Part shown: positions 41,990 through 47,216 of the stretch, piece by piece
Layout: every line of letters starts with the position of its first letter
Numbering within the stretch: position 1 is the stretch's first letter
From: Escherichia phage N2
Sequence record: ON645936.1
DNA length: 64,000 nucleotides
Strand: one strand, 5' to 3'
Translations under genes and position numbers: made by a program
Notes under the pieces: generated by a model
Told to the model about the DNA's origin: nothing
Seen by the model: only the letters and a program-made list of their open reading frames with translations
Database searches by the model: none

Positions 41990-42079
41990 GCATTGATAAG
42001 TACTAAACTATACTGCGAATAAAATTCTGGACCAAAATGAAAAATCATATCATTTATAGTATCAATAATATAATTCAGT

Positions 42080-42550
42080 TTAATCATGTTTCCACACCCC
42101 ATCGGTATTTGACCAAAGTCGCTGATTATCTGAACCTCGCCACAGCTTTTTGGTTGGAAGATTTTTCTCATACTTCCCATCAATAATAACATCAACATAT
42201 TTAAGCATTTCTAGTTGTTTAATATCTTCAAACTTGTACCCTGTCCACAACCAAATGCTTTTATTTGGATAAAGATTTTTTACAGTTTGAACAATGCAAT
42301 GAACATCATCTCGGTTATCAGGATAAAGAGGGTCACCTCCAGTTATAGTTAATCCTTCTATATAATCATTATTCAAACATTCAATTAATTGTTCTAGTGT
42401 TTCACCAGTAAATGGAACGCCATTTCTAGCATTCCATGTTGATTTATTATAACACCCTTCGCATTTATGCAAACAACCTGTAACGAAAAGAACTGTCCTG
42501 CATCCAGGACCATTAACAAAGCAGCACGGGTATATTCTGTCATAATTCAT
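42080..42550 (-). CDS. nrdG: anaerobic RNR activating enzyme (radical SAM)
   Basis: 156 aa from ATG at 42550; CLHKCEGC cluster motif. Confidence 0.85.
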   Translation of the reverse strand: MNYDRIYPCCFVNGPGCRTVLFVTGCLHKCEGCYNKSTWNARNGVPFTGETLEQLIECLNNDYIEGLTITGGDPLYPDNRDDVHCIVQTVKNLYPNKSIWLWTGYKFEDIKQLEMLKYVDVIIDGKYEKNLPTKKLWRGSDNQRLWSNTDGVWKHD

Positions 42551-43377
42551 AATAATATCCAATTTTTCCAAGCTTCATCAGTAGAATTACAGCGTTTTAG
42601 TATAAGATGTCTAGAAACTTTTATGGCATTTGAGCACTTTTTAATTGAATCATATTTAATACCGTCAACTGAAACGGTTTTGCTAGTTGGAGAAATTTTT
42701 CCATACATTGGATTTTTTGAACCAACTTGAAGTCCTTTTAAAGCTTTTGAAAGCTTTTGTCTAGATTCCAATGACATGGGAGAATTCTTTTTACCTTCAA
42801 TAATTCGCTTGCGATGAAGTTCGCGTTCTTCTTCACTCAAAGAATTGTAATATTTTTTAACACCGTTTGATATAGATAATTTATCTTTCTCAGACCGCTC
42901 TCCAGCTAATTTACTTCTAACATCTTTTCGCTTCATAGCTATGCTTACGGCTTTATTTAAATTTGCTTGATGCTCTGGCGTACGTTTATATTTCTTTAAA
43001 GCACGTGAAATAGCTATTTTAGTTTCTTCTGTTCTCTTTTTACCTTTATTTGCTAAACTATTTTTGCGGCGATGTTCAAGTGTCTGTTCATAGGCAGTTC
43101 CACCTTTTCCACCAGGTTTAATATTATATGTATTTTCTTTTAGACAATACTCTTCGGTTACAAGTTCAGCTTCTTTATCATACATTTGTTTTTCATTATC
43201 AAAAACATGTAAAATTTCTTTATTAAAATTTTTTCTACCATATTTTAATAAAGCGGCACGAATCAATGTTCCTGACCCCATATAACCGTCATTTATGTTA
43301 TCGGTGCTATGCGCACCGATATATTCCTTTGAATTAATTATATTTGTTATTTTATAAATTATATAATACCTATGCAT
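42547..43377 (-). CDS. GIY-YIG homing endonuclease between nrdD and nrdG
   Basis: 276 aa; YIIYKITN...EYIGAH; start overlaps nrdD stop by 8 nt. Confidence 0.6.
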   Translation of the reverse strand: MHRYYIIYKITNIINSKEYIGAHSTDNINDGYMGSGTLIRAALLKYGRKNFNKEILHVFDNEKQMYDKEAELVTEEYCLKENTYNIKPGGKGGTAYEQTLEHRRKNSLANKGKKRTEETKIAISRALKKYKRTPEHQANLNKAVSIAMKRKDVRSKLAGERSEKDKLSISNGVKKYYNSLSEEERELHRKRIIEGKKNSPMSLESRQKLSKALKGLQVGSKNPMYGKISPTSKTVSVDGIKYDSIKKCSNAIKVSRHLILKRCNSTDEAWKNWILL

Positions 43378-44644
43378 GTTTTACTCGTTTTACCATTTCT
43401 TTCATTTTACCTAAATTCCATGGAACAACGCTAGGAGTTCCAAGATATCCGCATGTTCTTCTTATTGTGTTCATCTTTTTAGGATCAGTTTCTCCACAAA
43501 TAGAACAAACAAATCCGTTTTCAGTAGGAGTCATTTCATGGGTACTTCCACATGTAAAACATTTATCTACTGGCATATTAACACCAAAATAATCTAAATG
43601 TTGTGCAGCATAATCCCATACAGCCTCAAGACCTTTTAGGTTATTTTTCATATCAGGAAGTTCAACATAAGAAATGTGACCACCTGTCGCAATGAAATGA
43701 TACGGGGCTTCGCGAGAAATCTTTTCAAACGGAGTAATATTTTCTTCTACTGAAACGTGGAAACTGTTAGTATACCAGCCTTTATCGGTAACATCTTTTA
43801 CACTTCCATATTTCTCAGTATCAAGTTTACAGAAGCGATAGCACAGGTTTTCAGCAGGAGTAGAATACAAACTAAAAGCAAATCCGGTTCTTTCAGTCCA
43901 CTGCTTAAGACGAGCATTCATTTTAGTTAAAATTTCTTGTCCAATATCACGACCGACAAGAATATTCAATTCGTGAATACCAATGTATCCTAAGGACACT
44001 GAACTTCTACCGTTTTTAAATAACTCAATTATATCGTCATCAGGTTTAAGACGAACCCCGAATGCACCTTCTTGGTAAAGAATAGGAGCAACAGTCGCTT
44101 TAACTCCTTTTAAGGAACTAATTCTACACATCAAAGCTTCAAAACATAAATCCATTCGTTCATTGAACAATTCGGCAAATTTCTGTTCATTGAACTGTGT
44201 TCCAATATAAGAATCTAACGCAATACGAGGAAGATTCAGTGTTACAACGCCAAGATTATTACGTCCATCAAGAATTTCATTACCAGTGGAATCTTTCCAT
44301 ACGCCCAAGAAACTACGACAACCCATTGGAGAAACAGGAATAGATGAACCTGTGATAGCTTTATTGTTCTTAGCTGAAATAATATCAGGATACATCCTTT
44401 TGCTTGCGCACTCTAAAGCAAGCTGCTTAATATCATAGTTCGGATCGTCTTTATAAAGATTAACACCCTCTTCAACGAACATAACAAGCTTAGGGAAAAT
44501 AGGAGTTATCCCATCACGACCGAGACCTTTAATACGATTTTTCAGAATTGCTTTCTGAATCATTCGTTCAGTCCAGTCAGTTCCCGTGCCAAACGTAATT
44601 GTTACAAAAGGCGTTTGTCCATTAGAGCTGAAAAGTGTATTTAC
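43370..44644 (-). CDS. nrdD: anaerobic ribonucleotide reductase NrdD, exon 2 (5' boundary approximate)
   Basis: C-terminal glycyl-radical motif RRTCGYLG and CxxC..CxxC zinc ribbon; splice site not mapped. Confidence 0.75.
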   Translation of the reverse strand, partial: VNTLFSSNGQTPFVTITFGTGTDWTERMIQKAILKNRIKGLGRDGITPIFPKLVMFVEEGVNLYKDDPNYDIKQLALECASKRMYPDIISAKNNKAITGSSIPVSPMGCRSFLGVWKDSTGNEILDGRNNLGVVTLNLPRIALDSYIGTQFNEQKFAELFNERMDLCFEALMCRISSLKGVKATVAPILYQEGAFGVRLKPDDDIIELFKNGRSSVSLGYIGIHELNILVGRDIGQEILTKMNARLKQWTERTGFAFSLYSTPAENLCYRFCKLDTEKYGSVKDVTDKGWYTNSFHVSVEENITPFEKISREAPYHFIATGGHISYVELPDMKNNLKGLEAVWDYAAQHLDYFGVNMPVDKCFTCGSTHEMTPTENGFVCSICGETDPKKMNTIRRTCGYLGTPSVVPWNLGKMKEMVKRVKHA

Positions 44645-44675
44645 TTCATCATTATATTCAGCATGAGTCGCAAAT

Positions 44676-45446
44676 TCATGCCCGTTTATATGAAACAACA
44701 AAATTTGGATAGTCCATAGATATGCAACGTTCTTTTATAGTGCTAGGATGAAAATTTAGCGCTTTAGCTGCTTCTATATAAGACGTATACTTAATACCGT
44801 CAACAACCACATATTCAGGAACTTTATGAATAGTAGTCTTAATACTCAAAACAAGAGGATGAGTTTCGACTTCACTTTCAGTGCAATTTAAATATTCCGC
44901 TGCTTTTTTAAAACTTCTAAAAGTTTTATTTTTAAGCTTTATCGATACTTGTTTTTTACTTTTTCGACTATTGATATTATTTTGCACATGTTCCTTAGAT
45001 CTTCCGTTTTTAGCATAATATTCAGCTACAGAAGATTTTATATTGTTTTTATGAGATTCGGATAACACTTTACCCTTATGAGCATCTCTTAATTTTTGAA
45101 TATGTTCTTCAGTATCCGGATGCTTATAAAACTTTTTACCGCCTATGGATTTATTTAAACATTTTTTGCTATAAAAATATTTACGTATGACCTCTTCTTC
45201 ATGTTTTAATGCATCTTTATAACTATCAAATGTTTTTAAAATTATCCATTTAGTAGGTGTATCAGTTTTTAAGCGTTCATTTATATACTTAGATGACGTT
45301 GTGTAAGTTTTCCAGTTTGTGGGCTTGTTTTTAATTGTTCTAAATTTTTTATAACCGATATAAATGTCGCCATTAGAAAACTTAACTAAGTATGTAAATG
45401 CGTCTTTATCTTTTATTTTAGTACAACGTCTTTTTATCCATTTCAT
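44676..45446 (-). CDS. intron-encoded GIY-YIG endonuclease (I-TevII-like)
   Basis: 256 aa; YLVKFSNGDIYIGYKK; GAGGTG SD; late promoter upstream. Confidence 0.65.
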   Translation of the reverse strand: MKWIKRRCTKIKDKDAFTYLVKFSNGDIYIGYKKFRTIKNKPTNWKTYTTSSKYINERLKTDTPTKWIILKTFDSYKDALKHEEEVIRKYFYSKKCLNKSIGGKKFYKHPDTEEHIQKLRDAHKGKVLSESHKNNIKSSVAEYYAKNGRSKEHVQNNINSRKSKKQVSIKLKNKTFRSFKKAAEYLNCTESEVETHPLVLSIKTTIHKVPEYVVVDGIKYTSYIEAAKALNFHPSTIKERCISMDYPNFVVSYKRA

Positions 45447-45475
45447 TGTTTCACCTCGTATTCATAAGATAATCT

Positions 45476-45483
45476 TATTTATA
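45476..45483 (-). promoter_or_regulatory. late promoter inside nrdD intron
   Basis: exact TATAAATA on minus strand about 30 nt before endonuclease ATG 45446. Confidence 0.55.
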
Positions 45484-45689
45484 CAAGATGACTGCTGCAT
45501 GTCGCCATGCAGATTAGACTATATCTTCATCTTTCGATGCCGGCCGTTTCGAATAGCATTAGCTTCTATTCTACACCGCTACATTCATCACGGTTAGTCG
45601 TTAGGCATTTAGTTCAAAAGAACATTTAGCACGGGATTGTCTACTAGAGAGGTTCCCCGTTTAGACCGGTTTTACATGAGCCTGAATTA

Positions 45690-46232
45690 AATTAACTCAT
45701 ACGCCTGGAATGCATCGTATACGTCTTTTTCTGTTTTAGATTGGGCATAATTCAATGCATCTGCGATTTGCCATTTTTCCGCGTCCTCAATATGTTTTGC
45801 ATAGGTGCGTTTAACATAAGGAGAAAGTACTTTATCTACATTCGCAAAAGTCGTTCCACCATATTGATGGGAAGCAACCTGTGCAGTAATTTGTGCCATA
45901 ATTGCAGTAGCAACGCCAATTGATTTAGGAGTTTCAATTTGAGCATTGCCTAATTTAAATCCATTCTCAAGCATCCCCTTTAAATCGACTAAACAGCAAT
46001 TAGTAAATGGAAGAGCAGGGGAATAATCAATATCGTGCACGTGAATAATTCCGCTTTCATGCGCTTTCATAATAAAAGACGGGACCATATTTTTGGCAAT
46101 GTGCTTAGACACAATACCAGCCATAAGGTCCCGTTGAGTTGGAAAAACACGAGAATCTTTATTAGCATTCTCGTTTAAAAGGTCTTTATTAGTTTTATGA
46201 ATCAATCCTTCAATTTCTTTTTCAATTGTCAT
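45690..46232 (-). CDS. nrdD: anaerobic ribonucleotide reductase NrdD, exon 1 (3' boundary approximate)
   Basis: 181-aa N-terminal part; frame closes at 45687 at intron edge. Confidence 0.75.
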
Positions 46233-46702
46233 TTTAAACTCTTTCTAAGCTGCTTCTTAAATGAAGCTATTAATTGTGTTTTAGTGTCAGATTCATTATA
46301 TTCAAATCCTCTTTGAAGCATCTCAGCCATCATTTCCTCTTTTCCTAAACGAGAAAATTCCTTTGATTTATCTCCAACAAAGTTAGGGTGAATATTATTT
46401 TGGGTGTAATCGGATTTTAAATAAGTAAGTAAATTTTCTAACCATTCAAGATAATCAACACCTTGTCCCTTTAAACCAGAACGATTAAATTTGTGTTTCA
46501 TTTGACCTTCTGCTGCATTGCAGAGATTACAAAGCAATCCACGTACCTTTCCTGCTTTTGGTCCATTTAATTCATGGTCATGGTCAAGGTGATTAGCTTG
46601 AACATCAGGATTTAGTTCTCGTTGGCAAATTAAGCATTTACCGTTTTGTGCATTATAAAATTTTTGTTTTTCTTCTTTGTATAATTTGCCAGTCAATAAC
46701 AT
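46229..46702 (-). CDS. 49: endonuclease VII (Holliday junction resolvase)
   Basis: 157 aa starting MLLTGKLYKEEKQKFY with zinc-binding Cys cluster. Confidence 0.9.
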   Translation of the reverse strand: MLLTGKLYKEEKQKFYNAQNGKCLICQRELNPDVQANHLDHDHELNGPKAGKVRGLLCNLCNAAEGQMKHKFNRSGLKGQGVDYLEWLENLLTYLKSDYTQNNIHPNFVGDKSKEFSRLGKEEMMAEMLQRGFEYNESDTKTQLIASFKKQLRKSLK

Positions 46703-46751
46703 AATAAAACCCTTACCTTAAATAGATAAGGGTATTTATTATTTTCAAGTA

Positions 46752-47216
46752 TTAAAATGCTCGGTCAGAAAAAGAAATTTGAGTTTCAAGCCATTCAATA
46801 TATTCTGCCGCAGCTTGCATCAAATTTCCTTCATAACCATCGTTATTTTCTTGTGCAGCTAATTTAGCTAATGCATATGAAATACGTTCACCTTGAAAAG
46901 CGGCTTTAGGTTTATGAATAGCTTGATCAACTCGTTCTACGACTTCTTCAATTTCGCCATTTTCTACCGATTCAGTATTCCATAAGCACCAATACGTAAT
47001 TGGCTTATCGTAGATGTTAATAATCTTTCCATCAGAAAGTTCAATTTCAATAATTCCAATATCAGGTTCTATATCATCTTCACATTCTTTTACAAGTTCA
47101 CGAACTTTAAATACAGTACCTGCACTAAGTTCCGGCCAGTAATTACACAGCTCTTTATCAGCACGATTAATTCTAAACCACTTATCTACTGTAATCATGT
47201 CCCATCTCCGTATCAA
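46752..47216 (-). CDS. hypothetical protein
   Basis: 154-aa ORF. Confidence 0.45.
   Translation of the reverse strand: MIRRWDMITVDKWFRINRADKELCNYWPELSAGTVFKVRELVKECEDDIEPDIGIIEIELSDGKIINIYDKPITYWCLWNTESVENGEIEEVVERVDQAIHKPKAAFQGERISYALAKLAAQENNDGYEGNLMQAAAEYIEWLETQISFSDRAF

Follow-up and report, generated by a model that had tools for sequence, protein, structure and literature searches.

The free-standing endonuclease genes of phage T4 home without residing in an intron and are arranged as promoter-less cassettes with translational coupling (PMC2988022). Phage homing endonucleases are modular in design, given that the nuclease is shared among them while the DNA-binding domain is private (PMC2988022). 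One of the T4 genes, mobC, is a promoter-less cassette that overlaps its neighbours, and the activity of its product is listed as not determined (PMC2988022, Table 1). The nrdD/nrdG junction is occupied by mobC in T4 and by the GIY-YIG gene segH instead in some relatives.

The original entries for this second gene, AY262137 (T6), AY262138 (RB3) and AY262139 (LZ2), all have the order nrdD, segH, nrdG. The gene is labelled segH in T6, PP01, F2 and SYGD1. SegH was named in 2005 (Sandegren, Nord and Sjoberg, NAR 33:6203) as a homing endonuclease of the GIY-YIG kind that is free-standing. In that study the enzyme reportedly cleaved near the site of its own gene, homed when two phages infected together, and cut segH-containing and segH-less DNA alike. 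The locus analysed here carries the same gene as RB3, T6 and LZ2, at the same junction, with the same overlaps and the same divergent nrdD tail, and in the gene itself there is no difference from RB3. What differs is the background, since nrdD of T6 is intron-less, whereas here an nrdD intron with an I-TevII-like ORF is present together with segH, a combination found in 15 records. SegH is thus already known, as a named and studied gene with an identical protein in GenBank, and its recognition in this DNA is correct but ordinary.

Three T4 endonucleases can be compared with SegH. SegB, a characterised GIY-YIG homing endonuclease, is likewise the product of a free-standing seg gene of Tequatrovirus, and the two catalytic domains are 54% identical in amino acid sequence over 90 residues (E 7e-32) and about 68% identical in DNA. 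Nonetheless, the C-terminus of SegB is unrelated to that of SegH, and its site and target is a tRNA gene cluster rather than nrdD/nrdG. I-TevI, the endonuclease of the T4 td intron, resembles SegH in joining an N-terminal GIY-YIG domain to an extended C-terminal DNA-binding region that ends in a helix-turn-helix. It is, however, intron-encoded, its sequence identity to SegH is 21-26%, and it has a zinc-finger linker where SegH has NUMOD3 repeats. MobC shares exactly the same nrdD/nrdG junction with SegH but belongs to an unrelated protein family (HNH), and mobC has a divergent patch of its own, different from that of segH, which lies further inside nrdG.

The segH gene and its surroundings

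The window, meaning the whole stretch of 64,000 nucleotides that was analysed, contains the neighbouring genes gp55, 55.x, nrdH, nrdG, nrdD, gene 49 and pin, and of all DNA matches that to Escherichia phage BYEP01 is the best, with an identity of 99.3%. Judged by these gene neighbours and by the best DNA match, it comes from a Tequatrovirus (T4-like) phage. The gene segH (42547..43377, minus strand) begins with ATG and encodes a protein of 276 amino acids, for which the ORF list and the raw sequence give the N-terminus MHRYYIIYKITNIINSKEYIGAH. Its start codon (43377-43375) lies inside the 3' end of nrdD, of which exon 2, stop codon included, ends at 43370. The resulting overlap of 8 nt (43370..43377, minus strand), ATGCATAG, holds the start codon of segH and the stop codon of nrdD. 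At the other end, the segH stop codon TGA (42549-42547) and the nrdG start codon ATG (42550-42548) share the 4 nt ATGA (42547..42550, minus strand). For nrdG the ORF list gives an upstream TTG as the start, and the ATG was assigned by alignment with NrdG of T2, T4 and T6 (MNYDRIY...). An ORF of 276 amino acids that starts 8 nt inside the end of nrdD and ends 4 nt inside the start of nrdG had been described in the earlier note, and all three numbers agree with the ORF list and the raw sequence. Overlaps of 8 and 4 nt are annotated at equivalent coordinates for segH in T6, RB3 (AY262138) and the Salmonella phage KM16, and the ATGA between segH and nrdG is a copy of the native nrdD/nrdG ATGA overlap of T2. 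The downstream gene nrdG (42080..42550, minus strand), for the anaerobic ribonucleotide reductase activase, matches Pfam Fer4_12 (E 4e-48) and Radical_SAM and is annotated in T6, T2 and T4.

The protein encoded in the window is identical at 276 of 276 positions to SegH of RB3 (ABI48949.1, GenBank AY262138) and at 271 of 276 to SegH of T6 (AXN58115.1). It matches PHROG 314 (homing endonuclease) with an E value of 2e-60, and 602 sequences are homologous to it at E<=1e-3, on which grounds a chance ORF was rejected. As far as sequence can identify a gene, the window ORF is the SegH orthologue, a free-standing endonuclease gene at the nrdD/nrdG junction. In deposited genomes, segH is in many cases labelled 'hypothetical protein', 'NUMOD3 motif protein' or, wrongly, 'segD'.

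Upstream of segH, no sigma-70-like promoter was found, and a search for the late promoter TATAAATA gave none nearer than the one that belongs to the ORF of the nrdD intron. The start codon is preceded, at a distance of 6 nt, by a weak Shine-Dalgarno sequence, GAG. The overlap with the nrdD stop codon suggests translational coupling: because the ATG is inside ATGCATAG, translation of segH would be coupled to the termination of nrdD, and its transcription would be part of the nrdD-nrdG message, without a promoter of its own. The segH stop codon in turn overlaps the nrdG start (ATGA), so that nrdG would remain coupled in the way that is seen where the junction is empty. In this, segH matches the pattern of promoter-less cassettes with translational coupling known for the free-standing endonucleases of T4. 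A stable hairpin of 9 bp was found at codons 19-27 of segH, with an open start region and a folding energy that is not unusual (z = -1.7). For these two reasons, masking of the ribosome-binding site by a hairpin, of the kind known from I-TevI, I-TevII or segB, was rejected.

[quoted passage not shown] Exon 2 (43370..44649, minus strand) matches Pfam NRDD (E 2e-122) and Gly_radical, and exon 1 (45695..46232, minus strand) matches positions 1-141 of NRDD (E 1.5e-40). They are separated by a group I intron of 1045 nt (44650..45694, minus strand), delimited to within a few nt from Rfam and from the gap in the alignment to the intron-less nrdD of T6, which also gave the exon 2 boundary. The Rfam model RF00028 matches at 45495-45730 (minus strand) with 70.6 bits, against a cut-off of 50. 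This match appeared once the filters were relaxed and less sequence was searched, while a search of 42000-46800 at the gathering threshold returned nothing; the miss was caused by the speed filters. Removal of the intron restores an intact NrdD of 605 amino acids, identical to that of T6 at 600 of 606 positions when the stop is counted, and the homologous region of T4 is annotated as nrdD intron/I-TevII. The intron ORF (44676..45446, minus strand) encodes an I-TevII-like GIY-YIG endonuclease of 256 amino acids that is 56% identical to T4 I-TevII and matches Pfam SegE_GIY-YIG (E 7e-6) and NUMOD1, and a short distance upstream, at 45476-45483 (minus strand), it has the late-promoter consensus. 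Its product and SegH are 29% identical and are distinct proteins. The intron sits about 1.3 kb upstream of segH. T6 has segH without the intron, and introns of this type occur in 43 records. The earlier note had held that the anaerobic ribonucleotide reductase locus is targeted by two separate mobile elements, and this stands, given that the group I intron is real, that the two endonucleases differ to this extent and that their presence is independent. In BYEP01, the endonuclease ORF of the nrdD intron has been lost.

Domains of the SegH protein

The N-terminal GIY-YIG domain, delimited from an AlphaFold model, Foldseek, the identity to SegB and the invariant residues, extends over residues 1 to about 93 (43099..43377, minus strand). 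A canonical GIY-YIG N-terminus had been proposed from the sequence, and this holds exactly for the second motif, Y-I-G at residues 19-21, while the first motif reads I-I-Y (residues 6-8), with I in place of the first G. The two motifs lie near the N-terminus with the spacing of about 10-11 residues of GIY and YIG. Among 90 homologues, Y8, Y19, G21, E69 and N85 are invariant. In a profile alignment to the I-TevI catalytic domain (1MK0), N85 is aligned exactly with N90 of I-TevI, and E69 is at most one residue away from position 75. By this alignment and the motifs, Y8 corresponds to the tyrosine of GIY, Y19 and G21 correspond to the YIG motif, and E69 and N85 are the counterparts of the glutamate with which I-TevI binds metal (E75) and of its structural asparagine (N90). 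A counterpart of the catalytic R27 of I-TevI was not placed by sequence, as residues 20-28 of I-TevI fall in an insertion of the profile alignment; H23, which is nearly invariant, and R40 are candidates for its role.

The AlphaFold (AF2) model has a pLDDT of 96-98 over residues 1-90 and a beta-beta-alpha-beta-alpha layout, in which strands 4-12, 18-25 and 51-59 form a three-stranded antiparallel sheet, with helices at 37-46 and 62-72. When this model was compared with the PDB by Foldseek, the I-TevI catalytic domain (1MK0/1LN0) took ranks 1-3 with a probability of 1.00 and a TM score of 0.61-0.65 on the target, and no match beyond the two domains of I-TevI exceeded a probability of 0.11. Searches with sequence and profile gave less. 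The curated Pfam threshold for GIY-YIG was not reached, since the score of SegE_GIY-YIG (PF19835) was 18.6 bits where 25 are required and there was no match to PF01541, and a single-sequence phmmer search of SegH against the PDB returned only noise. A profile of 90 sequences searched against the PDB found the I-TevI catalytic domain alone, over the whole domain and with a non-significant E value of 0.19-0.38. Many homologues that are 50-65% identical in the catalytic domain do have precomputed matches to PF01541 or PF19835. The earlier note had named the absence of a GIY-YIG fold on a profile search as the result that would speak against it; simple profile searches turned out to be borderline, and the structural comparison to I-TevI was positive. 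It is this comparison, together with the identity to SegB, that settles the matter, and a GIY-YIG fold of the SegH N-terminus is supported by the model. Pfam thresholds alone would miss the domain.

The remainder of the protein, residues about 94-276 (42547..43098, minus strand), is predicted to bind DNA. It consists of NUMOD3 repeats, which are helical, and ends in a module with a beta-hairpin and a helix-turn-helix that resembles I-TevI. Pfam NUMOD3 matches at residues 200-228 (E 3e-8), and I-TevI_DNA-bd matches at residues 226-273 with an E value of 3e-4, below the cut-off. The I-TevI DNA-binding domain (1I3J) was the fourth-ranked Foldseek match, with a probability of 0.87. Judged from these matches, the layout of SegH fits the design in which the nuclease is shared and the DNA-binding domain is private.

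The nrdD/nrdG junction in related phages

The earlier note had proposed a comparison of this junction in related phages, and the survey took in 840 phage records with a match to the nrdD/nrdG region. The junction was found in several states: empty, with segH, with mobC, with a remnant of segH, and recombinant. Full-length segH is present in about 70 of the 840 records. Most of the others, among them T2 and RB32, have an empty junction, at which nrdD and nrdG overlap by ATGA. In T4, it holds the HNH gene mobC, of which the first seven codons (MNYDRIY) duplicate the start of nrdG. PD112 has a remnant of segH from which 588 nt are gone from the middle, with only the two ends kept. ELT1 carries a mobC of T4 type (208/211 amino acids) between nrdD and nrdG ends of segH type, and SHFML-11, judged by its matches, is the same recombinant. 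The gene is thus sporadically present or absent at a fixed site between conserved genes, and it lies between two complete ORFs and not in an intron or intein; a search of 42000-44400 with Rfam gave no match. In 54 records, segH is at least 99% identical, while the flanking genes differ by 2-6%. A near-identical gene between diverged flanks is the usual signature of an element that has recently spread, and this is how the pattern reads here. In an unrelated phage contig of 175 kb, nrdD is directly followed on its 3' side by a homologue 47% identical to SegH, which suggests that the SegH lineage has long been associated with the end of nrdD.

Both flanks of segH carry a short divergent patch. 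On the nrdD side, the last ~87 nt before the overlap (43378..43464, minus strand) encode an NrdD that ends in ...TPSVVPWNLGKMKEMVKRVKHA and a stop, instead of ...NPNERGFNLGKNKEIMHRVKHQ and a stop. This tail is ~70% identical to T2 and T4, a value that reaches 95-97% in the remainder of exon 2, and the tail begins directly after the codons for RRTCGYLG, which we take to be the glycyl-radical motif of NrdD. Among segH carriers its identity is 98-100% throughout (95% in KM16), and it occurs in 80 phage records, with 100% identity over 86 nt to the original segH entries. A sensitive DNA search for the donor of the nrdD tail returned only these 80 segH-type records and no related form elsewhere. 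On the nrdG side, the first ~44 nt (42507..42550, minus strand) are 77% identical to T2 and T4, 93-100% identical in segH carriers and 89% in KM16, and they change NrdG by D10C and V19T relative to T2 and T4. The rest of nrdG is ~95-97% identical to T2.

KM16, of the genus Moonvirus, has nrdD and nrdG genes that are ~72% and ~71% identical to those of the window, and a segH that is 92% identical. Given that segH and both patches remain similar in spite of this distance between the surrounding genes, a cassette with short flanks has crossed between distant phages. The moving unit comprises segH, the ~87 nt of the nrdD tail and the ~44 nt of the nrdG 5' end. Flanks that are inherited together with the gene, in KM16 as well as in Tequatrovirus, are read as a co-conversion tract, the footprint predicted for homing. 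Since SegH is said to cut DNA that already bears segH, the divergent flanks may not confer immunity.

The segH start codon lies inside the 10-mer CATGCATAGG, which is read in frame as Met-His-Arg within native nrdD. SegH may therefore have borrowed a codon of nrdD as its start, with the nrdD tail rebuilt by an insertion of 16 nt.

Proposed homing and its alternatives

The reading that accounts for these observations is that segH of T4-like phages is a gene for a GIY-YIG homing endonuclease, free-standing and not encoded in an intron, which sits in the nrdD/nrdG junction, and to this a probability of about 0.95 is given. Going by the family and by the work of 2005, the setting for homing would be a mixed infection, with a segH-bearing phage and a segH-less relative in one cell. 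The C-terminal NUMOD3 and helix-turn-helix region would bind the other genome at its nrdD/nrdG junction or close by, where the target would be a long one, and nrdD exon 2 likely holds or adjoins this target. The N-terminal GIY-YIG domain would then make a double-strand break in the segH-less genome, and recombinational repair would copy segH and the adjacent sequence from the genome that carries it.

An alternative is that the segH of this window is domesticated or decaying, so that it no longer homes and is kept as a passenger or for the coupling of nrdG. Decay is known at this junction, given that PD112 keeps only the ends of segH and that the neighbouring intron of BYEP01 is without its endonuclease ORF, and the start codon of nrdG is embedded in the stop of segH. 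However, the ORF in the window is of full length, is 100% identical to the reference SegH and keeps all of the conserved residues of the catalytic domain. The near-identity of segH in 54 records amid more divergent flanks, and its passage with these flanks to another genus, argue for recent spread and not for decay. Nor is segH needed for the coupling, which the native ATGA overlap of nrdD and nrdG provides where the junction is empty. Decay or domestication is consequently given only a small chance. That SegH is mainly a regulator of the nrd operon (at transcription or translation) or a factor in phage competition by marker exclusion, with homing as a side effect, is more improbable still, for although I-TevI doubles as an autorepressor (PMC2988022), T4 endonucleases underlie the marker exclusion of T2 (PMC2790892) and SegB has lately been linked to the amplification of anti-defence genes (PMC13096335), the sequence gives no sign of an operator-like copy of a target site near segH, there is no promoter to repress, and most relatives are without segH.

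If segH homes at the junction as proposed, a break near the 3' end of nrdD might also drive co-conversion ~1.3 kb upstream and carry the nrdD intron along, although such homing in trans by SegH is considered rather unlikely. Introns that have lost their endonuclease ORF, such as that of BYEP01, would be mobilised in this way too. A demonstrated precedent for homing in trans is mobE, with the defunct I-TevIII intron (PMC2790892). The combination of segH and intron occurs in the 15 records noted above against about 4 expected if the two were independent (70 x 43 / 840), in raw record counts that are confounded by relatedness and include duplicate GenBank/RefSeq entries. This excess would be explained by homing in trans, if that were true.

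That a free-standing GIY-YIG endonuclease lies between nrdD and nrdG, as first proposed from the letters of the window, is upheld by the identity to RB3 SegH, the I-TevI-like model and the 54% identity to the SegB domain. As a discovery this carries little weight, and the check is useful chiefly for annotation. For the family, the junction shows a clean, textbook life cycle of a homing endonuclease, with empty sites, segH, mobC, a remnant, recombinants and transfer to another genus, and it could serve to study two endonuclease families that compete for one site.

A 10-mer shared by the end of nrdD and the beginning of segH

The gene segH (window 42547-43377, minus strand), which encodes a free-standing GIY-YIG homing endonuclease and lies between nrdD and nrdG, has its start codon in the 10-mer CATGCATAGG (window 43369-43378, minus strand), which also includes the stop codon of nrdD. 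The 10-mer occurs once in the window, versus 0.04 occurrences expected. It is also found in the native nrdD of phages T2 and T4, at a distance of 15 nt before the stop codon. There, ATG CAT AGG is in the nrdD reading frame and encodes Met-His-Arg, the three residues with which SegH also starts. The nrdD tail of phage ELT1 corresponds to that of T4 with a 16-nt insertion, GGTAAAACGAGTAAAA, placed immediately ahead of the 10-mer. The 10-mer would be either a crossover point provided by microhomology or an nrdD codon that was borrowed as the start of segH.

A perfect 9-bp hairpin, which reads TATCGGTGC-GCATA-GCACCGATA on the coding strand (window 43299-43321), is located in codons 19-27 of segH, the stretch that encodes the YIG motif. 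This hairpin is stable in an RNA fold, and the terminator scan flagged it on the antisense strand only.

Decay and divergence around segH and nrdG

In phage PD112, segH carries an internal deletion of 588 nt, equivalent to window 42658-43245, with its two ends kept, and the flanks are still of the segH type. The segH of PD112 is a decayed copy. The nrdG of PD112 is annotated with a shortened 5' end; the alignment shows that the ATG and the first codons are intact.

In T4, mobC (L003 1907-2539, in the T4 sequence) starts with MNYDRIY, which duplicates the start codons of nrdG (L003 1447-1917). Past the first 44 nt of nrdG, identity to the window is approximately 78% for T4 and ELT1, while it is approximately 95% for T2 and, for this reason, mobC seems to have a divergent patch of its own, located deeper inside nrdG.

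Several deposited genomes mislabel segH. It is named segD in RB3, RB5, RB6, RB7, RB9, and RB10, named a NUMOD3 motif protein in BYEP01, and given as a hypothetical protein in other genomes, while the product names across the segH region of AP018814 (T6) are plainly wrong.

A 175-kb metagenomic phage contig (L007) contains a SegH homologue that is 47% identical, together with a second SegE_GIY-YIG gene (359 aa) situated two genes upstream of nrdD. The nrdD of this contig is flanked on both sides by GIY-YIG endonuclease genes (L007 432-1511 and 4001-4828).

The nrdD intron and its open reading frame

The group I intron in nrdD (window 44650-45694, minus strand) was not detected by Rfam at the gathering threshold in the 4.8 kb of window 42000-46800. 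A search of 1.5 kb under relaxed filters did detect it, at 70.6 bits against a cut-off of 50. For introns with large ORF insertions, a negative Rfam scan in gathering mode is unreliable.

The I-TevII-like ORF of this intron (window 44676-45446, minus strand) lies a short distance downstream of the T4 late-promoter consensus TATAAATA (window 45476-45483, minus strand). The intron region is approximately 77% identical to T4 at the DNA level, and the ORF has only 56% protein identity to T4 I-TevII. Copies at least 99% identical to it are present in approximately 34 records. The ORF encodes an I-TevII variant distinct from that of T4. The closest relative of the window, BYEP01, has the same intron minus 700 nt (equivalent to window 44732-45431), which represent almost the entire I-TevII-like ORF, and contains an intron without endonuclease located 1.3 kb away from an intact segH.
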